A stretch of DNA of 37,778 bases from assembly GCA_900128585.1 (NCBI GenBank), contig LT642190.1, positions 1 to 37,778 of the forward strand, written 5' to 3'. The notes under the pieces were generated by a model. The model was not told the origin of the DNA, did not search any database, and saw nothing but the letters and a program-made list of their open reading frames with translations. Position numbers and translations under genes: made by a program. The DNA is from Stramenopiles sp. TOSAG23-3. Lineage: Eukaryota. This document shows positions 31-37,645 of the stretch, in pieces (position 1 is the first letter of the stretch; each line of letters opens with the position of its first letter).

Positions 31-2028
31 GTGTTGTCCGTCCGTGGCTCTATACCTCTATCAACCCGTTTGGAAATGCTTTTCCTGGCGTCGGTGACCG
101 TCCTTCTCTCTTCGGAAACGTTTCGGCATGCGATCGAAGGCTGGTTTGCGGACGGGTCGATGGTGGCGGCGGAGAACGTACTGATCGCTTTTTTTACGAT
201 TGTGATCGTCGGTTGCGCCATGCTCTTGTACAAAGTATTGACCACGCCCGACCTGCCGGACGGCGCAAAGTTGCCCCCCGTGGTGAGCACGGGACTCCCG
301 GTTTTCGGCCCCGTGCTCGCCTTTCTGAAGAACCCCCTGGAAGCAGTGGACAACGCCAGGAAGGAGTACGGGGACGTGTTCACCATCAACATGTTTCATA
401 TTAAGTCCACGTTTCTCATCGGGAGCAAGGCCCACAAGGCCTTCTTCGAGGCAATGGACGACCACCTCGACCAGGCCCCCTGCTACCGGTTCATGATCCC
501 GGTCTTCGGGAAGGGGGTGGTGTACGACGCCCCGCTCAAGAAACGAAGACAGCAGATGCGGTTCCTGGGGGGGTCCCTCCGGCCCTCGGAGCTTCGAAGG
601 TACCCGGGCATAATTGCCAAGGAGGCCGCTGACTTCTTCAAAGCGTACGGGGCGAGCCACACCAAGGACTTGCTCCACGCGATGGCGGACCTGACCATCC
701 TCACCGCCAGCGCGACCCTCCACGGCCCGGAGGTACGGCAGCACCTGTACAAGGACGTCAGTCGCCTGTTCGCGGAACTCGACAAGGGAATTTCCCCCCT
801 CTCGATCCTGTTCCCGTACCTTCCCACCCCCGCCCACCGAGGGCGGGACAAGGCAAACAAGGGCATGATAGACCTGTTCACGAAAGTCATCCGGGAGCGC
901 CGGGCGAAGCAGCAGGCGGAAGGCAAGGCGGCCAAGAAAGGGGTCGACATGCTGCAGAAGCTCATGGACAGCACGTACAAGGACGGGACCCCGGTCCCCG
1001 ACCACGAGATTGCTGGCCTCCTCATCAGCGCCCTCTTCGCAGGGCAGCACACGTCGTCCATCACGCTCACCTGGACGCTCCTCTTTCTCCTGAAGGACGC
1101 CCGGAACGGCGGGAAGTGGCTGAAAAAGGTCAAGGACGAGCTTGCGGCCGTGGAGCCGTCCCCGGGGGCCTTTGCCCGCGGGGAGGTCGACCACGAGACC
1201 GTCTCGAAGATGGACGTCCTCCACGCCTGCATCAAGGAGACCTTGCGCATGTACCCGCCGCTGATCTTTTTGATGCGGCGGGTCGTGAACAAGCCCCTCG
1301 AGGTGTGCGGGTACCACGTCCCCGAAGGGCACAACGTCTGGGTGTCCAACGCGGTCGCCCAGCGCTTGCCGGAGGTGTTCCCGAACCCCAACACGTACGA
1401 CCCGTCGCGCTGGATGACCTTTGACATTCGGAAACTTCCCCCGTACTCGTTCATCGGCTTCGGCGCTGGCATTCACACCTGCATGGGCGAGTCGTTCGCG
1501 TTCATGCAGCTGCGCACTGTGCTCTCGGTCATCCTCTCGTCGTTTGATCTAGAGATGATGGGCGAGTTCCCGGCCCCAAGCTACGAGGCCATGGTCGTCA
1601 TGCCCAAAGGCCCGAACATGATACGGTTCACTAGGAAGACGTCGGCGGGCACGACCGGGAAAGGGGTCGCCGGGCCGCGCGCAGGCGCCGCCAAAAAGGC
1701 CAAGAAGAAAAAGGCCGTGGCGGCGACAACGGCTCCGTCGGCGCATGGCGCCGTGTCAATGAACGCGGCGGTGGACGCCACGTTTACGCCCAAGGAAGTG
1801 GCGAAGCACAACACCGCCGACGATTTGTGGATCATCGTGAAAGGAAAGGTCTACGATGTCACCACGTACCTGCCGGTGCACCAGGGGGGGGACGCGATCT
1901 TGAAATTTGCGGGGAAGGACGCGACACAGGGTGTCTACGGTCCGCAGCATCCCAGCACGGTCCCGAAACTTTTGGAACGCTACTACATCGGCGATTTGGC
2001 CGCAGAGTATCATAGTAAATTAAATTAA
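31..2028 (+). CDS. CYP51: Sterol 14-alpha-demethylase (CYP51) fused to a C-terminal cytochrome b5 domain; 5' end uncertain (frame open from base 1, first ATG at 76)
   Basis: CYP51 signatures YRFMIPVFGKGVVYDA, I-helix AGQHTSS, KETLRMYPP (ExxR) and heme motif FGAGIHTCMG (Cys at 1480). After a Lys/Ala-rich linker comes the b5 pattern FTPKEVAKHN..DLWIIVKGKVYDVT.YL..HQGG..IL..AGKDAT..QHP..LERYYIGDL. Confidence 0.93.
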   Translation: MLSVRGSIPLSTRLEMLFLASVTVLLSSETFRHAIEGWFADGSMVAAENVLIAFFTIVIVGCAMLLYKVLTTPDLPDGAKLPPVVSTGLPVFGPVLAFLKNPLEAVDNARKEYGDVFTINMFHIKSTFLIGSKAHKAFFEAMDDHLDQAPCYRFMIPVFGKGVVYDAPLKKRRQQMRFLGGSLRPSELRRYPGIIAKEAADFFKAYGASHTKDLLHAMADLTILTASATLHGPEVRQHLYKDVSRLFAELDKGISPLSILFPYLPTPAHRGRDKANKGMIDLFTKVIRERRAKQQAEGKAAKKGVDMLQKLMDSTYKDGTPVPDHEIAGLLISALFAGQHTSSITLTWTLLFLLKDARNGGKWLKKVKDELAAVEPSPGAFARGEVDHETVSKMDVLHACIKETLRMYPPLIFLMRRVVNKPLEVCGYHVPEGHNVWVSNAVAQRLPEVFPNPNTYDPSRWMTFDIRKLPPYSFIGFGAGIHTCMGESFAFMQLRTVLSVILSSFDLEMMGEFPAPSYEAMVVMPKGPNMIRFTRKTSAGTTGKGVAGPRAGAAKKAKKKKAVAATTAPSAHGAVSMNAAVDATFTPKEVAKHNTADDLWIIVKGKVYDVTTYLPVHQGGDAILKFAGKDATQGVYGPQHPSTVPKLLERYYIGDLAAEYHSKLN

Positions 2029-2347: not shown

Positions 2348-3853
2348 TTAATTCAAAAAAATGCTGACAGCGCGATCTTTCGGTTCAAGTTCAACCCGAC
2401 TGAAGTGCCAGCGGATGTCAGATTTTGATACTGGTTGGAGAGATCCACTCCTTGGCCGAGACTCTTGCGTCGAGGCATTACGGTCCGCGAGGTCATCAAA
2501 GTCTTCGAACGAGTCTGTCGGCGGAAGAGGCATCGTACAGCCTTCGGAATCAAATCTCTCGAGCGATCCCGCGCGTTGTCGGTACCCCCCATTCTCTTTG
2601 TCATGCAGGGACTGAAATGTCTTGTAGCCGTGTGGTTGGTTGGTCCTGAACGTCTGAGCTACCTCCAACGAACCACCCCTTGATCGGAACTCTTGCTTTT
2701 GTTCAAATGGTGTGAAGGAACTAGTCCTTGACAGGCTCTCGGTGGTTGTTTCGTCGAACTCGAAGTCTCCGAGCGAGGTCGTGGACTCGTCCATGTCGAA
2801 GTCGTCTACCTCAACAGATTCACCCCTTGACCGGGACTCTTGCTTGAATGCATTGCGGTCCACATAGTCATTTTGTTCCAATGCCACGAAGGATTCAGTC
2901 CTTGGCCGGCTCTCGGTGTTCCTGCCGAAGTCGAGGTTTCCGAACGAGCTGCCCGTTGCTCTGCTCAGCGCCAGCAGCAAGGGGCCATCATTACCTTCGG
3001 GGTACACTCTCTCGGGCAATCCCTCTTCTTGTCGATTCCCATTCTCTTTGCCATACAGGACCCGAGATGACTTGCACTCTTTCGGGTGCTCGGGCCTAGA
3101 CGTCAGAAATACCCCCTCCTCGATCTTTACAGTCTTCGGCGACGCAGGTCTGGGGGAGAGTCGCTTCCCCTCCATGGAGACCACCTTGGAGACAGGTCGA
3201 ATGTTGTCTGGATCTGGGTCCAGCCTGTTTGTGACCTGCAAATAGCCGGCCGTGTGCTGCACCTTTCCCTGTCCATCGACCATAGCAATCTTCAAATCTT
3301 CGCCCCCGTTCTTTGGGCGTAGCACGAGTTCATGGTACACGCAGCGAAACGAAAGGCTGCACGATTCTTTCCCTTTCACAGCTTTCACCTCGGCCTGGTG
3401 ATTGTGCCGCTCACAGAATATAAGATCCCCCTGCTGCACGATAACGCCGTTCTTGTCGTAGAGCTCGATCCTGTCGAAGATACCTTTGCTCCCCGGATGC
3501 ACCTTGATGGCCTGGGTCGTGCCAGTCACCAACCTTGCATAAGTGTCTTTTATCACCATGGGCACGCCGTTCGGCATTCCAGGGATGTCGAACGTAGGGT
3601 TGGTGAGCGAGACGCTGATCGTGTCCTCCTTGAAGCAAATGACCGGCGCCTTCTTCTTCTGCTTCTGCGCCTTCTTCGCGCCCTTCTTTGCGTACTGCTC
3701 AACGTCGCTGATAAGGCACAGCGTCATCAAGGAGATCATGGACGTGGCCATCGAATGAGGCCTCACCTTCTTTTGTTTCGCGTGGTTCGAACGTTTTTTT
3801 CTCTTGTTGTGACCATTGCTGCCACGGAGGGCACTGTTGCTGCGCTTGGCCAT
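2348..3853 (-). CDS. Hypothetical 501-aa protein, probably nuclear: basic NLS-like N-terminus, beta-rich middle, acidic disordered C-terminus with repeated RxRxxS motifs
   Basis: Long ATG-initiated ORF with coding-like GC between AT-rich flanks; KRKKR and KKQKKKA clusters. No family recognised. Confidence 0.75.
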   Translation of the reverse strand: MAKRSNSALRGSNGHNKRKKRSNHAKQKKVRPHSMATSMISLMTLCLISDVEQYAKKGAKKAQKQKKKAPVICFKEDTISVSLTNPTFDIPGMPNGVPMVIKDTYARLVTGTTQAIKVHPGSKGIFDRIELYDKNGVIVQQGDLIFCERHNHQAEVKAVKGKESCSLSFRCVYHELVLRPKNGGEDLKIAMVDGQGKVQHTAGYLQVTNRLDPDPDNIRPVSKVVSMEGKRLSPRPASPKTVKIEEGVFLTSRPEHPKECKSSRVLYGKENGNRQEEGLPERVYPEGNDGPLLLALSRATGSSFGNLDFGRNTESRPRTESFVALEQNDYVDRNAFKQESRSRGESVEVDDFDMDESTTSLGDFEFDETTTESLSRTSSFTPFEQKQEFRSRGGSLEVAQTFRTNQPHGYKTFQSLHDKENGGYRQRAGSLERFDSEGCTMPLPPTDSFEDFDDLADRNASTQESRPRSGSLQPVSKSDIRWHFSRVELEPKDRAVSIFLN

Positions 3854-5120
3854 TGGGGTTGAATGGGGGAGGGAGGGGGGAGCGGGGGTGTAGAGCTAGG
3901 ATGCGAACTGGTCTACGGGAGTAGTAAATGCTATAGTTAAACTCCAACTATCTTTTTCTGAGATAGTTTGAAAAAAAGAATTAAATATTCGTAAGTTTAT
4001 TTACGTAATTGAATTGAATTGAATCTTTATTCTTACCCGTGTTCTTTCTCTTGAATTCATTTCAATATAGTATTCTATCTATAGTAGAACATACCTTCTC
4101 AAATACATACATACCCTCCCCCCCGCCGCCGCCGCCGCCCACTTTTTTTCTTCTTCTTTTTTTTTTTGTTGGAAAATCACACCTTCTTTTTGTCCTATGC
4201 TGTGTCTATGTATTACACAATCATTTTTCATAAAAAATAATTTTAGATCGACGCGCCAAACCTTTTTTTCTTCTTTTTTCTTTTCTTTTATCTGGGTTTT
4301 CCTATACTGTGTTTATGTAAAGTCAATGTCATTTTCTATTTTATTTAACACCGATGAACCTACTACTACTTTTCTTTTCTTTCAATGCTGTGTTTATGTA
4401 TATAATCCAGTTGGATCTATTTTCTTTTCCATAAATAACCTTTTATTAGTAGGTAAATAGCATAGAAAAAATGAATGGTTTCTTCGATTATTATATATAT
4501 ACTACACAGCATTAAAAATAACAGAAAACCCTCCAGATGCCGCCGTTTCAATGCTATGTTCCTATTCCATTCTCCCAAAGCCACCGTTCTTTCTTGATGG
4601 AATTTTATTAATAAAACAGGTAAATAGTATAGGAAAGAAAGAATTCAAGAAAGAATTAAGATCCAAAAATGAAAAAAAGAAAAGAATAGGAAAATAAATA
4701 TGTTGAGCGAGAACACAAAAGAAACTTCTTTTTATTCTTCTTTTTTCTATGCTATGATTATGTTAATTCTATTATACTTTTTTTTATCTTTTAAAGAAAG
4801 AAAGAAAGAAGAAAGAAAGAATGGAATAATGAAATCTTTCTTTATATTTCTTTCTTTCTTTCTTTCTTCTTTTGAGTTCTTTCTTTCTTTCTTTCTTTAA
4901 AACACGCGAGTGCGCCAAAACCTCAAATAATAGAAAACCAACCCACCAAAATAAAAAGTATAGAATTATGTATACTTATACTTATAATGATAGGATATAT
5001 TTATACATCGAAAAGAGAGGAGGGATGGCGCTTCTGCTTCTGACTGTTTTGTTGAGGGTCACAGATTACAGCTTACAGCTTACAGCATTGTAATTTCATT
5101 TGGGGCTTCTTTTTGTTTTG

Positions 5121-8821: not shown

Positions 8822-9540
8822 TTGGAACTCGCGCAATACTGTGTTCCTGTTAATAAGAAAAGCAAACCCTTCCTGCTATGTTCCTATTAATAGTGTTATG
8901 GTATGTGCCTGTTTCTTGAAGCATGGTTTTGGTGTTAATGCTGTGACGTTGTAATTGTATCTATATAGAATAATATTTAGTAGTCTTAATATGTACTTGT
9001 AATTGTTGGCGGGAGAAGGATTACCGGTTGGTATTATAAAATAGGTAATTATGAATTTATACAGGTATTATAATATGTATTAGAAGGGATATTGATAGGA
9101 TATGTTCGTAGTCATTGATGTACTAAAAAAGTTCACTCCTCCATCACCGAATCGTTCTTTTTATTTAAGGTATATGGAAATAGTGTATTCTTTAGTTCTA
9201 TCGTATTAGCTGTATTCATAGGTTCACTCTTTTCCATTTTAAAAGTAATTAAACAGAACTGAACAGAATGAAACTTAATTTCAATTGAATCTTTTTAATT
9301 CTTCTTAATATATACACAGTATCTCTTATTTATATTTATGAAATTGCATCTAAATCCTGAAATTCAATTTGCTTTTTTGGGACACCATTCGTTGAAGGAA
9401 ATCTCAAGAATTAAAAGATGGACAATGCTGTGACAGTATTAATATATATTATACACATCATAGCATTAATTGATATTGCCTATCATAATACTCACTAGAC
9501 TATGCATTATTTTATTATAACTATGTAGAATAGGATTGAA

Positions 9541-9840
9541 GTTGTCTTTCTTTCTTTCTTTCTTTCTTCTTTTCTTTCTTCTTTTCTTTCTTCTTTTCTT
9601 TCTTCTTTTCTTTCTTTCTTTCTTCTTTCTTTCTTTCTTTCTTCTTTCTTTTCTTACTTTCTTCTTTTCTTTCTTTCTTCTTTCTTTCTTCTTTTCTTTC
9701 TTCTTCTTTTCTTTCTTCTTTTCTTTCTTCTTTTCTTTCTTCTTTCTTTCTTTCTTTCTTTCCTTTCTTCTTTTCTTTCTTCTTTTCTTTCTTTCTTCGT
9801 TTCTTTCTTCTTTTCTTTCTTCTTTTCTTCTTCCTCCTTC
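9541..9840. repeat. Polypyrimidine (CTTT/CTT) low-complexity tract
   Basis: About 300 bp almost entirely C and T; similar shorter tracts occur in the other divergent intergenic regions. Confidence 0.95.
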
Positions 9841-10096
9841 AAAAGCAACGGCCACCATTTCATTTCCATCCATCCCAATAATAATAGTTTTAAATGAAGA
9901 CTAATAACAATCTCACAACCTCACTCTCTCTCTTTGTCTATCTTTTTTTGACCGATGGTTAACGTTTTAGTGTTCCTCTTTTCCCCTGTTGCCCAGTCTC
10001 ACTCCCTCTCTCTGTCTCCCCTGCCCTTCCCCTTTCTTACGACGTAAATAGTCAAACATGAGCGGACGAACGAGTACACCGACGAGCGGGCGTGCC

Positions 10097-12089: not shown

Positions 12090-14549
12090 CTACGAATGGT
12101 TCAACACGCCGAAGAACCTGGCCATCCAGTATGGCAAGAGCCAGGCCCCCGCGTCGTCCTCCGACATTCCCGAGCCGGAGGCGGTCACGATCCAGGGGTT
12201 TCCGTTCCAAAGCCCTTGCATGCGTTCGTTGCTCGGGAGGGGCGGCCTGGTGTGGAGGGATTGGACATCCTTGACGCCGAAACGGGTCACGGCAAGGTCG
12301 TAAAGGATGTCCTGCCGTTCGGCGTTGCTCACCGGCCAACGGATCAGCTCCAATGGCCACGTCCGCAAATTCCAGACAATGTCCCGGACGATGCTGTCGT
12401 CCTGGTTTCCAGACGTTGCCAGGTAGATGGCGTCCCACAAGTCAGGTCGCTCGGGCCGAACGATTTGAAACGTGCGCTCCATGCTTGTCAGCACTGGCGC
12501 GCGGTCAAACGGGCACGTCGAGCTGTTCTGGCAGAAAAACAAAAACGTAAAGTATGGCAGGAACGTTAGCTCGTCGTCGCTGTAATTATCGTCGGACGGG
12601 GCCGTAATCTTCAAGTTCATCACGTTTTCGTTGTACTGGTTCGTCTCGTTCGTCAATTCGCGGTAATGCCCCAGAAGTTCTTCCCGGCACGTATCGTTCG
12701 CAAAGTGGTACGCTGCCGAAAGGTAGGCCAACATCTGCATCGAGTTCACCCCTCGGCCGTCGCTCCATGGACGAAAATCGTTCAATTGGGCCGGGTCCCA
12801 CTGCCCCCACGACGTTGGCTTTCCCGTCCAATCGATCAACTTGTACCCGTTACGGACAAGGCCAAGGACAAAATTGCTCAGCAGCGTTCCCGCCAGCTCG
12901 CGCTCGGACGGGACTGGGGACAGTTTTGCGACCAGGCTGAGCGCAAACACGTGCCCGGTCGTCTCATCGCTCGACGTGTCGCTCTTCCAGCTCCAACCCT
13001 CGTAGTTCGGGTTCGTAGAGTTGCGCCACTGCCCGGGTTTTCCCCCCGTGCCGCACTTTACAAACGGTTCTTCGCTGGGGGCACACAGGCTTCTGGCCAT
13101 CAGCCCACGAATCCCCGTCACCTCGTTCAGGCGAACCATCCCCCCAAAAAAGGTGGACGCGAATTTAAGATCTTCCGGGGCCTTGGTGATGGAATACTTA
13201 AAGTACCCTGCCGCGACGACAAGGGACGTCCACAACCCGTTGTTGTCGTTGTCGGAACACACCGTCTTTGAATTGTCTCCAAACGATGGCAGTTGACACT
13301 GCGCCGTCAGCCCGTTGCGGTTGTGGCGTTCCAATTGGATGGTTTGGAACACTTCGGCCTTGCCTTCCAGTGTCCACTCCTGCTGTTCAAGGACTGTGAT
13401 GCCCTCTTCCGCCACTGCAACGATCGTGTCCCCCATCAGCTTCGCGTCCACCTTTCGCGGGACCACCGCCAATCGTTTTATTGTGCTGCCGGCAAGCCAC
13501 CGCTCTTTGTGCAAATACCTGAATTCGGGGTCGCTCCCTTTCTCCCACACGGACAGGCCGGAAGTTGTCCCGATCCATAGCTGGGCAACGTTTTCCCCTT
13601 GCACGTTGCGAACGGCAGTTGCAAACGCAATGCAGGTGATGTTGGATGTGGGGAGGCCCTTGTCGCCGTTCACGGTCGTGTACGTCCCGTTGTCCCCAAA
13701 CCGAACATTCAAATTGTTCTGCGTTCCAATGAATAGATCAGCGCCGCCGTTGAAATCATTCGAAAATGCGAGGGAAGTGACCGTCGAAGACAGGACGCCG
13801 CCCGCACCAGATTCAATGTCTGTCACCCATTCAAACCTCATAATGCGCTCCGCATTGAAATAATCGATGTGCCAGAGCTTTTCACTACTTCCGACCACCA
13901 CGGTCGGGGGACTGGCCAACCCGCTCGCGGCATTGCCCGACACGGCGACGGACAGCAACGGCAAAGTAGACATCCCCGGGACTTCCTGGACCTGCCCGAT
14001 CTTTCCCGCAGCGTCGATGGCAACTGTCAGTAGCCCCGCGGTCCCAACGCACCACACCCTGGTCACCTCCCCGGCCTTCGTCTGGTCCAAGCTAGCGGCC
14101 ACGTCGTTGATATCGCCGCGAGAACCAAACGCTTTGCAGTCGATGGCTTTGCATGATGACTGGGACGCGGAAAACGAGCAGCTCAGCGAGCAGAACTGGT
14201 CCGGGGATGCAAACCCTACAAGCGCCCCGTTGAACGCGACGAGCCTGGACCCTCCCGGAAGGTCGGCCTGGTCAAACGCAACCGCAGCAAAGGCCGGGCC
14301 AAAGAACATCTTCCCCTCTGCCAACACGACGAACCCTTCCTTGACAGCCACCACATCCTTCCCTGGCGTAGCAGTAGGAAATACAGGCCAGGACGGCGGA
14401 ACGTTGGATTTTGCCCCCTTGTAAAGTGCACGCTGCGGGACAACTTCAACGTACGAAGCCGGGGGGCTAAACGCCGCCGACGCCACACTGACCCCAAACA
14501 CCACTACCACCAAACGAAACCACCGATTTTGTAGTAGAATTCCCATCAT
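12090..14549 (-). CDS. Secreted 819-aa protein: beta-propeller-like N-half plus a helical, possibly glycosidase-like C-domain
   Basis: Signal peptide; propeller-like repeats (GLPTSNITCIA, LWIGTTSGL, LFIGTQNNL); acidic motifs DNDNNGLWTS, WKSDTSSDETTGH, NYSDDELTF, WLLPYWMARF. Confidence 0.7.
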   Translation of the reverse strand: MMGILLQNRWFRLVVVVFGVSVASAAFSPPASYVEVVPQRALYKGAKSNVPPSWPVFPTATPGKDVVAVKEGFVVLAEGKMFFGPAFAAVAFDQADLPGGSRLVAFNGALVGFASPDQFCSLSCSFSASQSSCKAIDCKAFGSRGDINDVAASLDQTKAGEVTRVWCVGTAGLLTVAIDAAGKIGQVQEVPGMSTLPLLSVAVSGNAASGLASPPTVVVGSSEKLWHIDYFNAERIMRFEWVTDIESGAGGVLSSTVTSLAFSNDFNGGADLFIGTQNNLNVRFGDNGTYTTVNGDKGLPTSNITCIAFATAVRNVQGENVAQLWIGTTSGLSVWEKGSDPEFRYLHKERWLAGSTIKRLAVVPRKVDAKLMGDTIVAVAEEGITVLEQQEWTLEGKAEVFQTIQLERHNRNGLTAQCQLPSFGDNSKTVCSDNDNNGLWTSLVVAAGYFKYSITKAPEDLKFASTFFGGMVRLNEVTGIRGLMARSLCAPSEEPFVKCGTGGKPGQWRNSTNPNYEGWSWKSDTSSDETTGHVFALSLVAKLSPVPSERELAGTLLSNFVLGLVRNGYKLIDWTGKPTSWGQWDPAQLNDFRPWSDGRGVNSMQMLAYLSAAYHFANDTCREELLGHYRELTNETNQYNENVMNLKITAPSDDNYSDDELTFLPYFTFLFFCQNSSTCPFDRAPVLTSMERTFQIVRPERPDLWDAIYLATSGNQDDSIVRDIVWNLRTWPLELIRWPVSNAERQDILYDLAVTRFGVKDVQSLHTRPPLPSNERMQGLWNGNPWIVTASGSGMSEDDAGAWLLPYWMARFFGVLNHS

Positions 14550-16395: not shown

Positions 16396-17838
16396 TTAAA
16401 AAAAGCCATCGTTTGATTTCGAGCGGGTGCTGATTTTTGAGAGTTTCATGGCATCGGCTGCGTCGGCCTGAAGACTCAGCCACTTCATCGTTTCGATAAA
16501 TGCTTCGAAATCCACTCGATGTGTCTTGTCGCTCATGCGAAAGCCCTCGAGTCTCTCCAGCATGGCATACGCCTCGTCCAGTTCCAGGCAGTTCCCTTTC
16601 TGCATCAGCAGCTTAATAAGGTCATTCTTATCGATGGTGCTCTCTCCTTTCGCCAGAATCTTAAACGCGTCCTTTATGTCCGCCTCCGTATCAAGTCGAA
16701 AAAATCCTGCCGGCAGCGGCGCCCTCGCGTTCACGGCAGCAGGCAGCGTGCGCGGGTTCTCGTTTGGCTGTGGGACGGGCATGCAGCGCGGCGTGTTGCA
16801 CCGGCGCCGTGACAAATCATTTTTGCGGTGGATTGTGGCCAGCATATGCCTCATGTCTTTCTCACGGTTTTTGTACTCGTACCCCGACTTTCGCTTTCGG
16901 TAGTACGCATTCATTTCTTTTTGCAATGCTTTCTTCCGTTCGATCCGGTACAACCGCTTTCTAATTTCCTCCGCCTTCGGCTTGGAGTACGCTTTTACCG
17001 TTTTCAGCTTCATCAGATCCAGCCTGTCTCGAACGCGAATCTTTCTATTCCACTCTACCATCTTTTGCTGAGTAGAAGTCGCCATGCCTGCGTTGAACAA
17101 AAACACCTCCTCCTTTGCCCATGCATTTCGCCATTCTTTCTTCGCCGTGCTTGGTCGACTTTTCTTCCGAGACGATGACCGTGCCGATCGAGCGTTGGCC
17201 GTCCGGGGCCGGGGCTTTCGTGCCTCCCTCCTCCCCAACTTCTGCACCATTTTCTTCCGTCGCTCCTCCCGGTGTTCCTGCTTATGTCGCTTTATATTTT
17301 CTTCCCACTTGGTCTGGGCCGCAACCATGCGTTCTTCCTTCTTCAACCCCATTTCACGCGCCCGCAGCAAAAACTTGTACTCTTCGTCCGTCAACGACCC
17401 TTTCCACTTCAGGAACCTCTTGAAAAGCGCGGCCATGATGGGGGAATACTTGCACGCAAGCCACAAGGGCGTCTCTCCAATGGTGTTTCTAGCGTGGAGA
17501 TCGGCGACTTCTCCGGACCCCCCACCGTGCAACAACAGTGCCCCAATCCGTACGCAGTCACCCAGCCGTTTTGGACTCCCGTGGTGCTTGCGGGCAGCCT
17601 GTACACAGTAGTAGAGGGGCGTATTCCAATGCATGTTCCGTTGGTTTGCCGTATATTTTCGTAATGCCAAGTATCGTCTCACCAAAACAACATCTACCCT
17701 TTGCACCGCGGACCATATCGTTGCCTTACGGTCTTTCTTCAACCCAGAACACCCCTCAAATCCTACAGGCGTTACTGCCGGATCTTGCGCCGGGGTCAAG
17801 AAAGGGGGTTTCAAGATTTTGGGAGTCGGAGTCAACAT
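16396..17838 (-). CDS. Ankyrin-repeat, coiled-coil and degenerate EF-hand protein
   Basis: ANK motifs WNTPLYYCV and GETPLWLAC; basic coiled-coil middle; calmodulin-like C-lobe (DIKDAFKIL..IDKNDL..EAYAML..VDFEAFIETM). Confidence 0.7.
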   Translation of the reverse strand: MLTPTPKILKPPFLTPAQDPAVTPVGFEGCSGLKKDRKATIWSAVQRVDVVLVRRYLALRKYTANQRNMHWNTPLYYCVQAARKHHGSPKRLGDCVRIGALLLHGGGSGEVADLHARNTIGETPLWLACKYSPIMAALFKRFLKWKGSLTDEEYKFLLRAREMGLKKEERMVAAQTKWEENIKRHKQEHREERRKKMVQKLGRREARKPRPRTANARSARSSSRKKSRPSTAKKEWRNAWAKEEVFLFNAGMATSTQQKMVEWNRKIRVRDRLDLMKLKTVKAYSKPKAEEIRKRLYRIERKKALQKEMNAYYRKRKSGYEYKNREKDMRHMLATIHRKNDLSRRRCNTPRCMPVPQPNENPRTLPAAVNARAPLPAGFFRLDTEADIKDAFKILAKGESTIDKNDLIKLLMQKGNCLELDEAYAMLERLEGFRMSDKTHRVDFEAFIETMKWLSLQADAADAMKLSKISTRSKSNDGFF

Positions 17839-20137: not shown

Positions 20138-23100
20138 CTACAGTTTCTCTAACGTGTCTTCGATTTCCGCGGAAGTCATATCTATCTTGGAGTCCACCGA
20201 CTTTCCTGATCTTTTGGAGGATCGAAACAATGGGTTTTCGAACGACGCTAAGCTGTCCCTGATTCGGCGCACCGAAGATCGCGCCCCCCTGCCAACCCCG
20301 CCCGTGTTCGGGTTCAAACCGTTTGTGGGAGAGTTATTTTTCGATCGTCGGTTGTTTGACCTTCTCGAACCGTGCCTGCGCAGCTGCCCCGTTTGAGCGT
20401 CGCCGCAAACGCCTTCCAGCCAAGACTCGACGTCGGAGGGTATGATTGCAAGGTAACTTTGGCCACCCGTGTAGCCTTCCTCGGGCAAACGGTCCAGCGG
20501 CTCAAAGGACAAGGAGGATTCCTTGGAGGCACGGACGTACGTCGTTTGACTCACATGAGTCCGTTCCGGGACCCCTCCACTTTCCATGACCTCGGCTTCT
20601 TCTACCGTTTCCCCCCACACGTCGAATATAAACTTCTTTCCACCGACCACACCGCCAACAACAGCACCGGACGCGACGCCCACACGGATACGAAGGTCTT
20701 TCCCGAACGGCCCTTTCCCGTTCAATTTGTGGCGGATGTTAAGTTTTGCCATAACCCAGTGCATTCCTATCCCAAACTGCACCATCGACGCTGCATGATT
20801 CGCAAGGGGCGACAGGACGCCGGTGCAGGCAACGTAGCAGTCGCCCAGCGTTTTTACTTTATCGACGCCGACGCGCTTTGCCAGCTCGTCGTGCATGGCA
20901 AACATGTCGTTCAATATTTGAACCAGCCGGATGGGGACCATGTTGGTGCTGAACACGGTGAACGATACAATATCGGCGAACAGGATTGTGCCATAGGCGT
21001 CCAGAACGACCTGCTTGCCACTCTTCAAGCCCTCGACCAAAATCGGTGGCAACGAAATAAGTTTCCCATGCTTTCCCTGCTCCGTTTCGATGGTTTCTTG
21101 CTGCTTTTTAATCCCCATCAACTTCATGAACATGCCACGGTGGCGAGCGTCCAGTTTGTAGCCAATGACGATGCTCACCAGCATCATGTGGACAAACTTT
21201 TCCACGATAAAGTCTAACGTGTTGCTGCAGAGTTTGTTATCGTGCAAGCCTATGAAGCACGATTGGTTCGTGCCCAAGACGACATACAGCAGTGCAAGCA
21301 ACGTGCTCAAAACCGCGGCAAACAGGTACGGCATGGTCGAATAGGTATTGATCAGGGTCAAATAGAACAGCATGACCCAACCGTAGTAATGGGCTTGTAC
21401 GGCCAAATTCAAAAAGACCCCCCCGATGATGACTTGAAGCACGCTTCCGAGGATTTCCAATCGAATGTCGTACGACAAACGGGTAATGAAAACGTACACG
21501 GTTGTGATGGGGATGACAATGCAGGACGTCCAGAAGCGGGCTTGGACCAACATGTCCTCGTCGTACGCCCGGACGCGCTCCCCAGGAAAGCACGCCGTGT
21601 TGTTGGTCGTATTGATCGGAAGGTTGAGGTCCGTGCAATACTTCAACTTGGCGCAGGACTCTTCCGCATTTTCCCAGGACATTTCGCTTGCGGTGGTCGT
21701 TATCAACGGGTCGATGCACTTGTCGTTCATGATGTTGGACGTGTAAATGTTGTTCAGTATTGCTACGCAGCAGATCATGATGAGCCAAATGGTTAAAATT
21801 GGAATCGATATTGCTTCCTTCCGGTCTTTATTGAAACTGAACTCTATCCCGCGCAGCGTACCGCTTCGGATAGTATGCAGCACGGCACGGATAGGGTTCA
21901 AAAAGTTCATGGTCGCACGCCGCAGTTTGTCATCCTTTCGCGTCTTCTCCGCTTTGCGCAGCATTTCGTGCGCATCCACCAAATCATCCTTCATGGCAAC
22001 ACACTGTTCGCACGAGCGCTGCTTGTATATTTTCTGGTTCGAGCAGTTATCGCACAGCAGCCGACCGCAGAACCGGCAGTGGTGTCGCCTGAAACAGATG
22101 GTGAAGCGAGCGTTGCACTCCTCGCAATGTTGGGACGATTCATCCCCGGTCCACAAGTGCTTTCCAATTTTCAGGTCGTCCTTGTTCGCCATCATCTCCG
22201 CAATTTTATCGTTGCTGTAGTTTGCGATCATGTGAATCGGGGCATTCTTGTGGATCGAGCTGCGCCTTCGGCCGCGATCGTCGGAGACCCCGCGCCGCAA
22301 CTGGCGCTTGTTGACCCGGGCGTGCATTTTGTTGTTCGGTTTTCGAATGCCGATCATGGGGTCGCTGGCATCGCGCTTCTGCACGAACAGGAAACACTCC
22401 ATCATCCCTTTCCCTTTCACGTTGATCATGCCCCTAGACTCAAACTCGAACTCATCCTTCAAGATCTCCGTAGTCGCCTTGGTCGTCTGGATCCTGCCCT
22501 TGACACCGCAGCTGTACATTCGACTGGCAGTGTTTGCCGCGTCGCCCCAGAGGTCGTACGTAAAGTTCTGGGACCCGATGACCCCGGCAACGACGGGGCC
22601 ACTACTGACACCGATTTTGTAGCTCAGGTCATCCTGGAGCATGGTGCCATTGTTGAAATCCTTTATGTTCTCTATCATGGCGAACGCAAAATGGGCCATG
22701 TGGGAGGCGTGGTCGTCGTCTGGGACGGGCAGCCCGGCCCCGGCCATGTAGGTGTCCCCCACCGTTTTAATTTTCTCAATCATGTGCTTGTCCGTCAGGT
22801 CGTCGAAACGCTTGTACAGCATGTCGATGACTTCAACGACTTGGACGGTTGGGAGCTTGTCGAACAGGTCGTGTATCCCCAAAACTTTGGCAAAAATAAT
22901 AGTGACAGAGTTGAACTCGTCTGCGATCGCGGCGCCGTTCCGCAGCGTTTTGATCCGGGGGATGATTGCCCGCGGCAGCACCCGCTCCAACAGCGTTTCG
23001 GACTTCTTTATGTTCTCCATCAAGATCTCCTGCTCCTCGTCGAAGCTCAAATGCAGCAAGTAGTTCTGCAGCTGGAGCGTTTCCGGCAGCTTTGTATATA

Positions 23101-23962
23101 TGTGCTGCACGACCCACCAGCCGAACAACGGGGCGAGCTTGTGCAGTTTGTGCTCCCGTATAATGGCAAAATTGACGAGTTGGCAAAGGCAGTAAAACCC
23201 CGAGCCGTACGCGACCGTTTTCCACGACCGATGAACACCGACTTTTCCGGGAAAGTGGTGCACGGCGCTCACGAACAGAATCATCGAACTGTCGTAAAAG
23301 GTCGGGGCCCCCAGGGCCACTTCGGCAATGCCCGTCAAAATCGGGAACAACAGGTAGAGGCCGAGAAGCGCCCGCCTCTTGCTGTAGTCGGATTGGATTT
23401 TCGGCAGCTCCCCGTACATCATGGCAACGATGACGATGTTTGCCACCCCGTACAGGGCGATCGGCGACCAGCACCAATTGAGCCGCTCGGAGATTTTCAT
23501 GTCCTCCCCGTTCCCATTGCGCACCGCTGCGTAGTGCCCCTTTTCTAAATCATACCACGTGAAAACGATGGAGCCCAAGAACAAGATGAAGCTTTGGACG
23601 GCGTGCTTGAACTCGAGCGACCCGAGCATTTCGTCCTTCATGTTCGAAATATACTCGTCGTCCTTCTCTTCCGCTTGGTGCAGGAACATACTGTTCGCCT
23701 TGTCCATGCTCGCCTTCAGCGTGAGCGTCTCCGAAAACGTCAAGCGCTTGTGCTTTGAATCGAACATCAGCTTTTCCGACCCACGCGCTTTGTTGAAGTC
23801 ATCAAACCCCCCCTCCGTCTCGCTGCCCCTGCTCATGTTCCTTGATCGCAAGGTATCAGGAATGTTCAGCTCTTCCGCCATTTCCGGCGCGGCCTGGGAT
23901 TGCCGACGCACGCCAGACCGTTTTCGCCGCGGCCTCTTCCCTTTTCCACCGTTACCGGACAT
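20138..23962 (-). CDS. 12-TM class III nucleotidyl (predicted adenylyl) cyclase, architecture M1-cyclase-FYVE-M2-cyclase
   Basis: Two cyclase domains (EKIKTVGDTYM..YDLWGDAANTASRM and FADIVSFT..KVKTLGDCY..FDVWG), two clusters of about 6 hydrophobic helices, and FYVE WTGD..CEEC..RRHHCRFCG..CDNC..RSCEQC. First ATG at 23962. Confidence 0.9.
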   Translation of the reverse strand: MSGNGGKGKRPRRKRSGVRRQSQAAPEMAEELNIPDTLRSRNMSRGSETEGGFDDFNKARGSEKLMFDSKHKRLTFSETLTLKASMDKANSMFLHQAEEKDDEYISNMKDEMLGSLEFKHAVQSFILFLGSIVFTWYDLEKGHYAAVRNGNGEDMKISERLNWCWSPIALYGVANIVIVAMMYGELPKIQSDYSKRRALLGLYLLFPILTGIAEVALGAPTFYDSSMILFVSAVHHFPGKVGVHRSWKTVAYGSGFYCLCQLVNFAIIREHKLHKLAPLFGWWVVQHIYTKLPETLQLQNYLLHLSFDEEQEILMENIKKSETLLERVLPRAIIPRIKTLRNGAAIADEFNSVTIIFAKVLGIHDLFDKLPTVQVVEVIDMLYKRFDDLTDKHMIEKIKTVGDTYMAGAGLPVPDDDHASHMAHFAFAMIENIKDFNNGTMLQDDLSYKIGVSSGPVVAGVIGSQNFTYDLWGDAANTASRMYSCGVKGRIQTTKATTEILKDEFEFESRGMINVKGKGMMECFLFVQKRDASDPMIGIRKPNNKMHARVNKRQLRRGVSDDRGRRRSSIHKNAPIHMIANYSNDKIAEMMANKDDLKIGKHLWTGDESSQHCEECNARFTICFRRHHCRFCGRLLCDNCSNQKIYKQRSCEQCVAMKDDLVDAHEMLRKAEKTRKDDKLRRATMNFLNPIRAVLHTIRSGTLRGIEFSFNKDRKEAISIPILTIWLIMICCVAILNNIYTSNIMNDKCIDPLITTTASEMSWENAEESCAKLKYCTDLNLPINTTNNTACFPGERVRAYDEDMLVQARFWTSCIVIPITTVYVFITRLSYDIRLEILGSVLQVIIGGVFLNLAVQAHYYGWVMLFYLTLINTYSTMPYLFAAVLSTLLALLYVVLGTNQSCFIGLHDNKLCSNTLDFIVEKFVHMMLVSIVIGYKLDARHRGMFMKLMGIKKQQETIETEQGKHGKLISLPPILVEGLKSGKQVVLDAYGTILFADIVSFTVFSTNMVPIRLVQILNDMFAMHDELAKRVGVDKVKTLGDCYVACTGVLSPLANHAASMVQFGIGMHWVMAKLNIRHKLNGKGPFGKDLRIRVGVASGAVVGGVVGGKKFIFDVWGETVEEAEVMESGGVPERTHVSQTTYVRASKESSLSFEPLDRLPEEGYTGGQSYLAIIPSDVESWLEGVCGDAQTGQLRRHGSRRSNNRRSKNNSPTNGLNPNTGGVGRGARSSVRRIRDSLASFENPLFRSSKRSGKSVDSKIDMTSAEIEDTLEKL

Positions 23963-25483
23963 TCTCTTTATGGTTAACAAATTGAAACACTCTCTGAAAA
24001 AACCGTTGGTCCGTAGGTTCTTTCTTCCGTTTCCGCTGCTTTCAAACCACACGTTCAAGACCTACCCGTCCTCTTCATATCTTTTCAGTTCCTTTCGGTT
24101 CTGTCAAACCTTCCGCCCCTTTTCGATTACTTGTTTCCTCTTGTGCGTGCTTTTATTTTCCAAAACATTTTGTATCAAAAATCTTACTCCAATGTACTTC
24201 ACACCCGAAAGACAAGGCTTCTACATTCCCCATCGATACCAACTTCTTGGATTAAATAAAGCAGTAACATTCGATTGTAAAGTAGTCATACAAATCGATA
24301 CAAAATTCTCATATTTTCAAGTAAGGTATGATTGTATACTCTTCATAGGCAATGCACGAAGGGAAGGAGGTGGACTGGTAGTGTACATAGAAATAGCATT
24401 GATGCGTGACCACGTATTGGTTGGAATACATGGCACAGCAAAGGATTTTCTAATTTTTGTGCACAGTTGTACCAAACGAATTGAATAGGGTGAATGAATC
24501 GTAATAATACAAACATATAAGTACAGAATAAAAGAATATGAGTTGATTGTTTAATAGGTAAGGATATCGTTGTATATTGGAATCGTACGGTTTTGTTTTA
24601 GGTAGAAAAGTGGTAAGAAGACAATGGGAAAAAGAAAGTGGATTGATGAAGCAATGGCAAAAGAAGGAAACTTGATCTTAATTCTTAATTCATTCTGTGG
24701 AATTCTTTGGGAATTCGGAAGGGAGGGAAATGTTCTTTGCTTTTTCTGGGAGAATGTAGATAGATATTATGGGTATATTAAATTGTATGGGTTAACCTTG
24801 TAATTATGAAATACTTTAAATGGAATTCAGTTTTTGAAGAATGAAAATGAAAACTTCTAAATTTTATGAAAGTTTTGTTAGAATTAACAGGACACAGGGA
24901 GAGAGACAAAAGGGAAGGAGACCAACCAACCATATATTCAATGCTGTGTATATGTTTTCATCAAATATTCATTAAATTTCTTTGATTTCCTTCCCTGCAT
25001 CTTTCTTAGAAGGAACATAGCATTGAAAAAAGGAAAACGGAAGTGAATTGGGTGATTGTAAAGTTCACCCATAATAGAATTGGTTTTATTGTAGTAACAT
25101 ATAGGAACATAGAAGTACTTGAAGTATTATTGTTTTTTATTTAAAGGTATACTGACAAAAGGACCATATATATGAAGATTCATATAGGGGAACATTATTA
25201 AAGTATACGAAGAATGTACAAGGTGGCCATTACTGCAGATCTGATTTTAGGTGCAACATTACACAGCATAAGATACGGAATATTCCTTAAACTTGATGTA
25301 GAAGACCTTGACCAAAAATGGCTTGTCAGAGCTGTTTGAACAATCCAAATGTTTAATAGTCTCAAACACACCTCCATGTATATATAAAACCAAAACTGTG
25401 CCCATTGGCACTCAAACTACTGTAATAATGCAAAGATATCATATTGAAATGAAAAGTTTGGAGCAGATCGATTGGGTCAAATG

Positions 25484-25575: not shown

Positions 25576-26334
25576 ATGCTGTTGGCTGAATTAAATGCCA
25601 GTTTGAAAGCTGAACGCACGGAAGCCAAGCGTATCTACCAAGCGGACGTGCAAGGAAACAACGGGAGTGCGAAGAAATACCCGAACAAATATTGCTTGGG
25701 ATCGAAGCTCCCCAGGATTAAAGGCAATTATTATCGATTGATAGAAATGTTTGGGCAATATGTGTACGACAGAAGGGATTTGGATGCAGCGACCACGAGA
25801 AAAGAGAACGCCATGAAGGCGGAGTTGCACGCAATGCGCAAACGGATTTGGGTATATCGAAAATTCTATGGGACTGACAGGACGAACGAAGACTATCAGC
25901 AGCTTTTGGACAAAGCTGACGACAAATTTGCTTACTACGATTCTGGTTTTGAAGAAAAACAGGCGGCAATAAGCGACACCGAATCGAACAGCAGTAGCAG
26001 CTCAGACGGGCTAGAGGACGGGCTAGTTCTCATTGAAACTGGTAACGCCAATTTCGACAAAGGACAGCAGGATGGCAAAAGAGCAGTAAAAAAAATCAAC
26101 AAGGAAGCGAGGAAAATAAGAAGAAATTTGGAGAAAAATAAAAAGGACATTGCGGAAATTATTGGACCGTTGACAGCAGGTGACCCGCCGATGAATGCGT
26201 TTGACAGAGACCACTACGCACCCCAAGATCAGGAACAAAGATTGGATGGGAGTAACGAGAATCCGCAAATCGCGAATACTTGTCCAAATAAAAACCTGAA
26301 GACAGCTATAGAAAGCCCTTTATCCATAGAATAA
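25576..26334 (+). CDS. Hypothetical 252-aa charged/helical protein between direct repeats
   Basis: ATG-initiated ORF, visibly more A-rich than neighbouring genes; its stop lies inside repeat copy 2. No family recognised. Confidence 0.5.
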   Translation: MLLAELNASLKAERTEAKRIYQADVQGNNGSAKKYPNKYCLGSKLPRIKGNYYRLIEMFGQYVYDRRDLDAATTRKENAMKAELHAMRKRIWVYRKFYGTDRTNEDYQQLLDKADDKFAYYDSGFEEKQAAISDTESNSSSSSDGLEDGLVLIETGNANFDKGQQDGKRAVKKINKEARKIRRNLEKNKKDIAEIIGPLTAGDPPMNAFDRDHYAPQDQEQRLDGSNENPQIANTCPNKNLKTAIESPLSIE

Positions 26335-26341: not shown

Positions 26342-27326
26342 AGATTTGGTAGCAAATGCGCAATCAGTTCGAAAGTTGAGAGTCTAGTGGCCTTCTTGCG
26401 TTGCTTGTCTTCTTCCCTTTTTTTTCCTTCTTCTTCTTCTTTTTCTTCTTCCTTTTTCTTCTTCCTTTTTCTTCCTAGGAGAAGGAGTGTAATTTGTACA
26501 TTCTGTTATTGTTTACAGGGCCTTCTCCTCTTCTTCCACCTCTATTTCATTGATATTTATAATTATTATGCATGGTTTTCCATAAGAAACTTTTGTTGTA
26601 ATTGCAGAGAAGGCATTTTTAAGGTCCAATTAATAATTATTTCATAACATAAACAGAGCATTCGAAAATGTCATTATATTTATAAAGAAAATAGCAATCC
26701 CTTTATTTAGACTAGCTTGTTGATTTGATCTAATAATACTGTGATTATATGTTATATGTTGTAATCAGTAGTAATCAGAGGAAGTCTTCGAGTCATTGGC
26801 ATCCATCGAGCATCGACTCTCCGTCCGTCCTTCCTTCCTTCCTTCCTTCCTTCATTTGTTAACTTGGAGCTATTTCCATGATATACAATATTACATAATT
26901 ACAGCATTGAAAGAAGAAGAAGAAGAAGAAGAACACTGCTTCTTTCCAATTTAACTATACAATATATTCGTACTATTCATTTCCTATCATTCCCTACTAC
27001 AATTACAGTACATGCTATTTAATGTATTAAATAACACCTCCTCCTCCTCTTCTTTCCTTTTCTTTCTTTCTTTCTTTCTTCTTTCTTTCTATCTTTTTCC
27101 TCTGCTCTTCTCTTTCTTCTGCTCATCATCATCAATCATAACAACAAAATAAGTGCGAATCTTTTCAATTTACTATACTTCACAAACTTTCGTTTGGAAC
27201 GAAATATATTTACGCCTTCAAATTTACCATCAACATGCAAAGACATTTGTTCAATTTAGAACTATTGAATATTAGCATACGTATACGGTTTATTGACGGA
27301 ACAGAGCCGAACACGATTTGAACACC

Positions 27327-28196
27327 ATGGCAGCACTCGCCCCGCCTTCTTATGGCTCCCGAAATGCCCACATAGAGCAGCCGGTTTCAAACGGGCCGTA
27401 CACCACGCCCAGGTTCGTTTGGAATGCAAAATGTACTGATTCCCTGATAGATAATCTGCAGAGGGCCGTCTTTGCACTGAGTGCGTCGGCATCTATGTTC
27501 GTCTGTGACAGTTACATCATAGGGGGGCAAGACGCTCAGCTTGTGGGACGCGTATTTTTCCCAAAACTACCGTACGGACAGTTCTGCGGCCCGGAGGATT
27601 TCCGCGAGCCCCAAGCAAGCACGTGCTCTTTGTACGCCACCAAAGACTGCCTTTTTGTTCTTCTCGGCACCAAAACCGACCAACGAAGCATTCACGATGT
27701 TGTAGACGGGATATTTTCAAAGTGGGGGGGGCTCAAGGACGTTGTTGCGCTGGACTCGGTTGCTTTGGAAGAAGTCGAGCGCGCCAATTCGTCTGCGGCC
27801 CCAAGCCCGGCCACCTCCTCCAAGCTGTGGTCACTTAGTACGTCCTGTGGCACCAGCGTTGCGACGGTGTCCCCTTTGCCAACGGAATGTTTGGTGCAAG
27901 GAACGTGCGCAACCGTGCTCTCTTACTGTGAGGCCAGAGGATTAGCGGCTAGCGCAGTTTTTACCACGGTCGACGTGTTAAACTCAGACATTGATAGTGA
28001 TGCCAAATCTTTCTGCAAGTTGCAGAGTTTGCCCTCTTTCTTGCCGCCTTCCGCGGAGAAAAGTGGAGACGATAGAACGCGCGCCTTGAACAATGCCAGG
28101 GCAGTCTTACGGGGGGAAGCTATGTGCTGTGTTATCTCCGCCGCAACGGCAGCGAGTCCAGCTGGGCGCACTGCTGATTCGGGTTTGTATTTATAA
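27327..28196 (+). CDS. PSMG1: Proteasome assembly chaperone 1 (PAC1/PSMG1)-like protein
   Basis: PLPTECLVQGTCATVLSYCEARG resembles the PSMG1 'P.LE.PN.V..L.AAVLSYC' block; C-terminal HbYX motif (GLYL); size fits. Confidence 0.65.
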   Translation: MAALAPPSYGSRNAHIEQPVSNGPYTTPRFVWNAKCTDSLIDNLQRAVFALSASASMFVCDSYIIGGQDAQLVGRVFFPKLPYGQFCGPEDFREPQASTCSLYATKDCLFVLLGTKTDQRSIHDVVDGIFSKWGGLKDVVALDSVALEEVERANSSAAPSPATSSKLWSLSTSCGTSVATVSPLPTECLVQGTCATVLSYCEARGLAASAVFTTVDVLNSDIDSDAKSFCKLQSLPSFLPPSAEKSGDDRTRALNNARAVLRGEAMCCVISAATAASPAGRTADSGLYL

Positions 28197-36475: not shown

Positions 36476-37645
36476 TTACAATCTGCGAAAGATAGATTTC
36501 GATTTCGTTTTCTTTCGTGGCATTACGGAGCTCAAGGCCCTGTTTGTCAACCATCGACCGAACATGGACGACTTTTCCATCGTCGTTTCCCATTTAGACT
36601 CGTAGTTCTTCCGTGTCGATACACGCGCGTCATTTAATTGCAGCATTTTTAGCAGCGGTGTCGTAATGAACGAAGGCAACCATTGGTGTTTGACTTTGGC
36701 CTTGAAGTCGTCAAAATCGATTTCGAATTTGTGGCCACCTTGGCGGCTCGCATCGGGACTGTAATCCGTGGTGAGTTTCAATCTAATGTTCGTGTACGTA
36801 AGGTCCTGGATCACGACCACTGGTTTGAACAGTCTTCCTGTCTTCTTGCTGACGGAATCAGTGTTCAGTACTGATTTCTTCGTGATAATCGAAATGGACG
36901 GCTTTTGCTGCAATATTTGCCAAATGTTGTAATACAGCGCCTGCTTTCCTGCCTTGGTGTTGCCAGCCGCCCGTAGTTGCTCAGTCGATTGGCCCTCCCA
37001 CGGGTTGCGAATGAGGCTGTTCACCTTGTTCATGGCAACGTCGGTAAGTTTCTCTATTATCATCTGGCTAAATTTATTAATAATCGGCAAATTCGTTCCG
37101 CGCATGACAGCGTTTGCCAGCTTGGAAACGGCCTTCTTCAACAAAAGGTGCCCCTTCCCCTCTTCCCCCTTGTGGTTCTTGTGGTCCAGGTAGAGTGGCG
37201 CAACTGTGTGGAGGTCTTTTGTGTTTGGGTCGTAGCACGAGATCTTCGATTTGTGATCCTCTGCTTTCTCAAATGCGTTCATATCCTTGTCGTACGACAG
37301 CTGAAAATCAAGCAGAACGCCAGGTTTCTCTCCCGACATGTTGCAGTTTGATAAAACGTCAAAGTCAGACCGACCAAATTTGCCCATAAACGTATCGGTA
37401 AATACGAGTCTGTCGAACACCAGAACGGCTTTCACGTCCATAAGCGTGTCTTCGTTCTTCCGGAGCAACTTTATGTCAATGGAGGGCATCGCAAAGTTGA
37501 CACCATCCGCCTTGACTTTTTTAATAGAAATGAGATTCACGTCTTGTCGGAGACCTTGGTTGATCGTCTCTCTCAACCCCATAGGTTCCGTTGCGGCGGC
37601 GCAAACCGCGAAGACCGCAAGTAAAGCAACTACAGTAACCTTCAT
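36476..37645 (-). CDS. Hypothetical secreted 389-aa protein
   Basis: Clear signal peptide MKVTVVALLAVFAVCAAA; long ORF; basic C-terminus. No family recognised. Confidence 0.75.
   Translation of the reverse strand: MKVTVVALLAVFAVCAAATEPMGLRETINQGLRQDVNLISIKKVKADGVNFAMPSIDIKLLRKNEDTLMDVKAVLVFDRLVFTDTFMGKFGRSDFDVLSNCNMSGEKPGVLLDFQLSYDKDMNAFEKAEDHKSKISCYDPNTKDLHTVAPLYLDHKNHKGEEGKGHLLLKKAVSKLANAVMRGTNLPIINKFSQMIIEKLTDVAMNKVNSLIRNPWEGQSTEQLRAAGNTKAGKQALYYNIWQILQQKPSISIITKKSVLNTDSVSKKTGRLFKPVVVIQDLTYTNIRLKLTTDYSPDASRQGGHKFEIDFDDFKAKVKHQWLPSFITTPLLKMLQLNDARVSTRKNYESKWETTMEKSSMFGRWLTNRALSSVMPRKKTKSKSIFRRL

Follow-up and report, generated by a model that had tools for sequence, protein, structure and literature searches.

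It is well established that CYP51 is the one cytochrome P450 common to sterol synthesis across kingdoms and a target of the azole drugs, and its electron supply has been treated as settled, with cytochrome P450 reductase (CPR) as the donor and cytochrome b5 as an option. The tail-anchored b5 of yeast is described as dispensable for CYP51 unless CPR is lost too (PMC13155568, Sci Adv 2025, a source drawn on in part throughout this text). According to the same source, plant CYP51A2 depends on a different protein of the b5 family, the cytochrome B5-like protein CB5LP (At1g60660), as its essential electron carrier: the Arabidopsis protein counts 121 aa, with an N-terminal transmembrane segment and a C-terminal b5 domain, and its essential heme histidines, His81 and His104, are 23 residues apart; moreover, the activity of CYP51A2 in yeast microsomes rises with CB5LP, and plants that lose it accumulate obtusifoliol (PMC13155568). 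Here we analysed a stretch of 37,778 nucleotides from Stramenopiles sp. TOSAG23-3 (contig LT642190.1, positions 1 to 37,778, hereafter the window), which carries, at bases 76–2028 of the + strand, a gene for a single polypeptide in which a CYP51 runs into a cytochrome b5 domain resembling that of plant CB5LP.

CB5LP was termed plant-specific after a survey of plants, red algae, bacteria, fungi and animals, in which bacterial, fungal and animal matches were kept only at 100–200 aa (PMC13155568). Such a survey would miss fusions as well as stramenopiles. Among described single-chain systems, MCCYP51FX of Methylococcus capsulatus (6mcw) is similar to the window protein in that a homologous CYP51 bears a small redox carrier at its C-terminus through a simple linker; however, it is a soluble enzyme whose iron-sulfur ferredoxin can supply both electrons (PMC13155568), whereas the protein described here is eukaryotic, membrane-anchored and equipped with a carrier of the heme type. 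With the ordinary arrangement of yeast and human cells, namely CYP51, CPR and a tail-anchored b5, the fusion has in common the catalytic domain and the fold class of the heme carrier. P450BM3 and the CYP505-CPR proteins, like the fusion, hold a P450 and a redox partner in one chain, but the fusion is devoid of a flavin reductase. In front-end desaturases, flavocytochrome b2, sulfite oxidase and nitrate reductase, finally, the b5 domain is fused to the enzyme that it feeds, while here the acceptor would be a P450. Two types of fusion, P450-CPR and P450-peroxidase, have been reported in lower eukaryotes (PMC4486971, also drawn on in part), and a paper on the sterol pathway of Schizochytrium gives CYP51G1, with no mention of b5 or of a fusion in the part of its text considered here (PMC10174431). 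We found no description of a natural CYP51-b5 or P450-b5 fusion in open-access PubMed Central and bioRxiv, subscription journals and the supplements of PMC13155568 lying outside this scope. The architecture is visible in the Pfam annotation of databases, and is thus known to pipelines even if undiscussed; it extends a known principle, that of a P450 joined to its redox partner, and is not a new kind of system.

One reading frame stays open over window bases 1–2028, where it closes with a TAA (2026–2028), as judged from the list of open reading frames (ORFs) and the translation. The sequence-only reading of this DNA had let the gene begin at base 31, which is a GTG; a start of the eukaryotic style is likely the ATG at base 76, from which the protein counts 650 aa, since the same start is found in the homologues P0002, P0124 and P0125, members of the same cluster, and in P0006, which is 70% identical (P numbers denote stored proteins). 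Pfam recognised a p450 domain at residues 71–517 (bases 286–1626; E = 8.6e-68) and a Cyt-b5 domain at residues 571–642 (bases 1786–2001; E = 2.5e-22), the profile of the latter being covered end to end (1–74 of 74), and this agrees with the earlier claim of a CYP51 running in frame into a b5. No other domain was matched in the whole protein at E values up to 0.01, and at this threshold a flavin-binding reductase domain was not found in the chain either. NCBIfam gave weak matches to prokaryotic P450 families alone, all far below their cut-offs. Ahead of the catalytic domain lies an N-terminal membrane-anchor helix (bases 160–243, residues ~29–56), which is indicated by hydropathy windows starting at residues 27–42 and by a helix at 29–56 in the AlphaFold2 model.

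When the protein was compared with solved structures, CYP51s made up nearly all of the best 60 matches, from 6q2c at the top (E = 7e-128) down to ~1e-63, and other P450 families appeared only from 1e-28; the Methylococcus CYP51-ferredoxin entry 6mcw was matched at 2e-94. The stretches YRFMIPVFG, at residue 137, and AGQHTS, at residue 322, are those that we take to be the CYP51 signatures of the B' helix and the I helix, respectively, and H325 and T326 of the second one are invariant in an alignment of 46 fused proteins. The thiolate ligand of the P450 heme would be Cys469 (bases 1480–1482), within the motif FGAGIHTCMG at residue 462; together with H602, H625, G604, G605 and P626 of the b5 domain, it is invariant in all the 46 aligned proteins. 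By fold, Cys motif and nearest relatives the P450 part is a CYP51, for which the role of sterol 14-alpha-demethylase is predicted.

The two domains are joined by a flexible linker rich in Ala, Lys, Thr and Gly (bases 1636–1785, residues 521–570), which begins at about base 1636, close to where the sequence-only reading had placed it, and includes the KKAKKKK stretch noted there. The AlphaFold2 model, built on 46 fused homologues, had a mean predicted local distance difference test score (pLDDT) of 87.2 and a predicted template modelling score (pTM) of 0.81; both domains are confident, and the fall of pLDDT below 50 at residues 525–563 indicates a disordered tether of ~45 residues. Within the b5 domain the predicted axial heme ligands are His602 (bases 1879–1881, in HQGG), which aligned to the HPGG His of solved b5 type B, and His625 (bases 1948–1950, in GPQHP), which aligned to the second ligand His of solved b5, in keeping with the two histidines pointed out before. 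The b5 part alone matched classical cytochrome b5 structures at ~1e-15 and the steroid-binding type at ~1e-4. The chain ends 8 residues beyond the b5 domain, and hydropathy revealed no hydrophobic stretch on its C-terminal side, so that the absence of a tail anchor, which had also been claimed from the letters, holds.

Public sequencing data bear on the junction directly. The stretch 1300–2100 is covered by 20 public runs from 11 studies, 9 of which are recorded as RNA, and the contigs of four RNA runs, each from a different study, were compared with bases 1–2400. In every run one contig bridged the linker colinearly: X11 over 1129–2122, X18 (oligo-dT) over 1508–2093, X4 over 1255–2138 and X7 over 1300–2177. 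No joint, whether intron or break, was observed in bases 1–2400 in the four runs, and for this reason the gene is regarded as intronless and unbroken, with RNA contigs colinear over 1–2177; contigs from RNA libraries are, however, no proof of transcription, as DNA may be present in them. The sequence-only reading had reckoned with a stop, a splice or a misassembly in the linker, and none came to light, while the RNA across this region that it had suggested looking for is there in four independent studies. One difference was found near the 3' end: five bases of the window (2008–2012) are missing from all four RNA runs, and P0002, a twin of the window protein of 644 aa, ends at the matching point. 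The last six residues of the window protein, by which it would be shorter without these bases, are therefore either a variant of the strain or a slip of the assembly, beyond the end of the b5 domain.

The fusion is not confined to the window. A word-indexed homologue search gave 273 proteins at E values up to 0.001, and among the best 120 clusters, which were listed, 52 (P0002–P0051, P0053 and P0066) hold both PF00067 and PF00173 and 68 the P450 alone, a division with which an independent motif check agrees. In an exhaustive HMMER search, matches running across the junction of both domains numbered 15 among the 150 best representatives (clustered at 50% identity). The rarity of CYP51-b5 implied by the sequence-only reading can therefore not be maintained, and of its own reservation, that the architecture might prove common and already described, the first half came true and the second did not, no account having been found. 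Mean identity of the fused homologues to the window is highest in the b5 domain (66%), lower in the P450 domain (58%) and only 11% in the linker, which is 11–122 residues long (median 42). Since the junction has long been kept and the b5 domain is better conserved than the enzyme, the fusion is not an accident of gene prediction; it is real, conserved and in-frame.

As for the organisms, the named fused members include the labyrinthulomycete Hondaea fermentalgiana, where the protein is annotated just as 'Sterol 14-demethylase, partial', and a EukProt record whose label we read as MAST-3. One fused protein is filed under Batrachochytrium salamandrivorans (P0046, BASA81_011322); on the P450 tree described below it nests deep within the Hondaea branch, adjoining P0033, so that this sequence more probably stems from a labyrinthulomycete-like contaminant of that assembly than from the fungus. 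To judge from these sequences, the arrangement appears to extend through a large group of heterotrophic, stramenopile-like marine protists, with labyrinthulomycetes, MAST lineages and the organism of the window. Three fused proteins, those of the named members and of P0046, bear names. Two tandem b5 domains were observed in three of the CYP51 fusions, P0009, P0016 and P0020.

A tree of the P450 domains was built with FastTree from 118 rows, leaving out P0002 as the twin of the window, P0050 as too short and P0087 for want of a match to the Cys motif. Of the 51 fused proteins, 45 form one clade with a support of 100, which divides into a branch of 18 rows with the window and the MAST-3 record and a branch of 25 rows with Hondaea. 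The six fused proteins outside it are P0047, P0048, P0049, P0051, P0053 and P0066, and four of these (P0048, P0049, P0053 and P0066) adjoin unfused CYP51s, including those of Mallomonas and Pinguiococcus. The distribution of fused and unfused proteins on the P450 trees needs two changes; a single fused clade was nevertheless not rejected by the approximately unbiased test (p 0.238), which was run on 60 rows, half of them fused (out of 51) and half unfused (out of 67).

Which kind of b5 has been joined to the CYP51 is a question on which the free-standing relatives of the domain are informative. When shorter proteins were searched with the b5 part, 75 matches were obtained at E values up to 1e-5. 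After fragments of fused genes, the top named free-standing proteins were plant 'cytochrome B5-like protein' entries of 117–118 aa, 59–60% identical to the window b5, from date palm, asparagus, coconut, oil palm and ginger (P0156, P0160, P0168–P0170), and from their name, length and topology these monocot proteins would be orthologues of CB5LP. A Pyramimonas protein and P0176 of Aphanomyces stellatus (124 aa, 59–60% identical) likewise ranked high, while the plant tail-anchored 'cytochrome b5 isoform E' came far lower, with 46–47% identity. By BLASTP, the window b5 aligned with date-palm P0156 at 59% identity, gapless, with 97.8 bits, as against 47% identity, one gap and 71.2 bits with a plant tail-anchored b5.

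The topology of these proteins points the same way. P0156, P0160, P0168–P0170 and P0176 each have an N-terminal helix and no tail; in the N-anchored short b5 proteins the second ligand lies in a GPQH context, the spacing between the two histidines is 23 in 25 of 25, and ~19 residues follow the second one. Ordinary tail-anchored b5, which is a separate protein, has instead its second His in DVGHS or DIGHS, 24 residues after the first in all 9 examples, and ~64 residues after it, and the medians of this last value are 19 in fused and N-anchored short b5 and 64 in the tail-anchored ones. The window b5 shows GPQH and a spacing of 23, lacks a tail, and is held on the membrane from its N-side, although the anchor there is the helix of the CYP51 and not one of the b5 domain itself. 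In all these traits, and in having a CYP51 as partner, it is like plant CB5LP, from which it differs in that CB5LP and CYP51 are two polypeptides while the fusion is one chain, and in the first His motif, HPGG in plants and HQGG in the window.

In a maximum-likelihood tree of 122 b5 domains and 81 columns, from which 15 fragments or false motif matches had been dropped beforehand, one branch, with 91 in the Shimodaira–Hasegawa-like approximate likelihood ratio test (SH-aLRT), parts 55 fused and 30 N-anchored GPQH domains from 12 tail-anchored and 25 other b5. Taken together, kinship and topology suggest that the window b5 is of the CB5LP type and not an ordinary tail-anchored b5, which is an addition to what had been read from the DNA before. 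As the b5 has the topology of CB5LP, and CB5LP is the electron carrier of plant CYP51, the fusion would join two partners that are separate in plants.

P0176 deserves a word of its own, being a free N-anchored b5 of the GPQH type in an oomycete of the sterol-making order Saprolegniales, to which CYP51 is confined among oomycetes (PMC4486971). Its presence there argues that CB5LP-like proteins are not restricted to plants.

The reverse search, in which date-palm P0156 was compared with longer proteins (201 candidates chosen by words in common with the query), led to another fusion. Six of the 45 matches listed (P0227, P0231–P0235) combine a 3-beta-hydroxysteroid dehydrogenase (HSD)/NSDHL-like domain with a C-terminal b5 of the GPQH type; three come from the brown algae Ectocarpus, Scytosiphon and Choristocarpus, and the order of the domains was confirmed with Pfam for three of the six. 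The GPQH-type b5 would thus be tied to sterol synthesis twice in stramenopiles, once with CYP51 and once with an HSD resembling the sterol C4-decarboxylase. The pathway neighbour of that dehydrogenase, the C4-methyl oxidase, is a b5-dependent enzyme. Fusions of the better-known kinds were recovered as well, with PF00487 and PF00173 desaturase proteins among the 45 matches listed and flavocytochrome b2 and sulfite oxidase among the solved b5 matches. Apparent arrays of b5 domains were also noticed in long proteins of 540–1252 aa, where the window b5 was matched in 4–11 separate stretches (P0315, P0316, P0347, P0356, P0360, P0372, P0376, P0388, P0395, P0396 and P0402).

Starting from the observed architecture, ligand residues, presence of the junction in RNA libraries, conservation and b5 kinship, we propose with moderate confidence that the tethered b5 feeds the heme of its own CYP51, probably with the second electron of each cycle, and that a reductase from outside the chain is needed; that both domains carry heme, which way and in which order electrons move, and which reductase takes part are predictions here. 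The CYP51 would reside in the endoplasmic reticulum membrane, its C-terminus being connected through the flexible tether of ~45 residues to the bis-His b5 of the CB5LP type, and the single N-terminal helix of the CYP51 would anchor both domains, each of which would bind heme. The tethered b5 would be reduced by a flavoprotein on another chain (CPR, NADH-b5 reductase or both) and could then swing onto the P450 and pass electrons to the CYP51 heme, most likely the second one in each of the three oxygenation cycles.

Several results weigh against this reading, and most of them concern the assignment of the b5. The b5 tree has 81 columns only, and at an SH-aLRT of 91 its key branch is not strongly supported; moreover, the comparison set is biased, as its members were chosen by words in common with the query, and it does not include Arabidopsis CB5LP. 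The spacing between the histidines is not uniform in the fused proteins, as 43 of the 73 motifs counted have 23, 28 have 24 and 2 have 25 (all stored fused proteins, near-copies among them); with the canonical 24 in 28 of the 73, we rejected it as a clean marker of subtype. In the reverse search with P0156, none of the 45 matches listed, out of the 201 word-chosen candidates, had a P450 domain. In a local phmmer search with the same query, the window protein reached 90.3 bits, compared with 64–76 for tail-anchored b5 and 91–96 for the brown-algal fusions, and on this ground the miss looks like a limit of the word-based candidate step, but it is still a failed reciprocal test, and many fused proteins of the Hondaea branch reached only 62–76 bits. 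The brown-algal proteins raise a further point, as their enzyme uses NAD and needs no b5, so that the acceptor of the electrons need not be the enzyme to which a b5 is fused. Lastly, the redox potentials of b5 are usually too high for the first electron of a P450 and suit the second. Considering these potentials together with the lack of a flavin domain, an outside reductase, and not self-sufficiency, is to be expected.

It is also conceivable, if rather unlikely, that the tethered b5 works mainly in trans, for the di-iron C4-methyl oxidase and the C5-desaturase, the CYP51 being chiefly its membrane anchor within a sterol-synthesis assembly. The six proteins in which the GPQH-type b5 sits at the C-terminus of a 3-beta-HSD/NSDHL-like enzyme without need of b5 would fit such a role, whereas CB5LP of plants directly supports CYP51A2 in yeast microsomes and the mutant accumulates 14-alpha-methyl sterols (PMC13155568). 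Service in trans and the feeding of CYP51 can, besides, coexist.

We consider it improbable that the CYP51 is independent of CPR, with NADH as the source of all six electrons by way of b5 reductase and the tethered b5. The b5/b5-reductase system of yeast is said, in older literature, to drive the whole CYP51 reaction, but the usual potentials of b5 oppose the transfer of the first electron. For plant CYP51A2, two routes are reported, NADPH-ATR-CB5LP and NADH-CBR-CB5LP, of which the one from NADPH was favoured over that from NADH by CYP51A2-CB5LP in the microsome assay (PMC13155568).

The b5 is very unlikely to be a non-redox helper, acting by heme delivery, stabilisation or allosteric activation as proposed for b5-like proteins of the MAPR/Dap1 type: regulation of P450s by b5-like proteins without electron transfer has been reported in the part of the literature considered, but the domain of the fusion belongs to the classical bis-His type, both histidines being invariant in 46 of 46 proteins, and matches classical b5 far better than the steroid-binding type (~1e-15 versus ~1e-4). 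That misassembly or a lost stop merged two adjacent genes is hardly credible, for, apart from the 5-base difference near the 3' end between the window and the four RNA runs, everything speaks for one gene: the linker is crossed by contigs of four independent RNA runs, the domain order is equal in 52 clusters of the 120 listed, from independent sources, and the b5 domain is strongly conserved.

Under the reading that we prefer, in which the tethered b5 feeds the CYP51 heme, a natural fusion of CYP51 to a b5 of the CB5LP type in distant protists would lend independent support to the pairing described in plants and would suggest that this pairing is not confined to them. The fusion fixes the two hemes at a one-to-one ratio and would suit the study of electron transfer from b5 to P450; it occurs, in addition, in thraustochytrids, a group cultured on an industrial scale for lipids and sterols. 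A broader and more tentative idea, possible in our opinion but not the likelier outcome, is that the partnership of CB5LP and CYP51 is an old eukaryotic arrangement rather than an invention of plants, which the gene fusions of stramenopiles have recorded: CYP51-b5 in labyrinthulomycete and MAST-like lineages, C4-decarboxylase-b5 in brown algae and a free N-anchored b5 in sterol-making oomycetes would then be its traces. If this were the case, sterol synthesis outside animals and fungi would have a dedicated 'sterol b5' at its core that has so far gone unnoticed, and the fused form would be a ready one-chain system in which to measure how b5 drives the three-step reaction of CYP51.

The rest of the window was scanned with Pfam over its 14 large ORFs, of which eight were matched and six were not at E values up to 0.001. 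The matches, to MCM2, EMP70, a U-box, a purple acid phosphatase, a FYVE cyclase, a cold-shock-domain protein, a DEAD helicase and the fusion's own neighbourhood, are those of ordinary nuclear genes, and no reductase or redox partner was recognised by Pfam among the 14. The ORFs left unmatched lie at 2348–3853 (−), 12090–14549 (−), 16396–17838 (−), 25576–26334 (+), 27318–28196 (+) and 36476–37645 (−). The cyclase is encoded by an ORF of 1306 aa at 20138–24058 (−) and has two adenylate/guanylate cyclase catalytic domains together with the FYVE zinc finger. Shortly downstream of the fusion gene, at ~2258–2335, three units of ~31 bases, each with a GC-rich core and then a run of T, were seen by eye to follow one another head to tail, in the AT-rich spacer of two convergent genes. 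Base composition varies markedly along the window, with a GC content of up to 0.60–0.67 in ORF stretches and of ~0.29 in some spacers (4001–5000 and 9001–10000).

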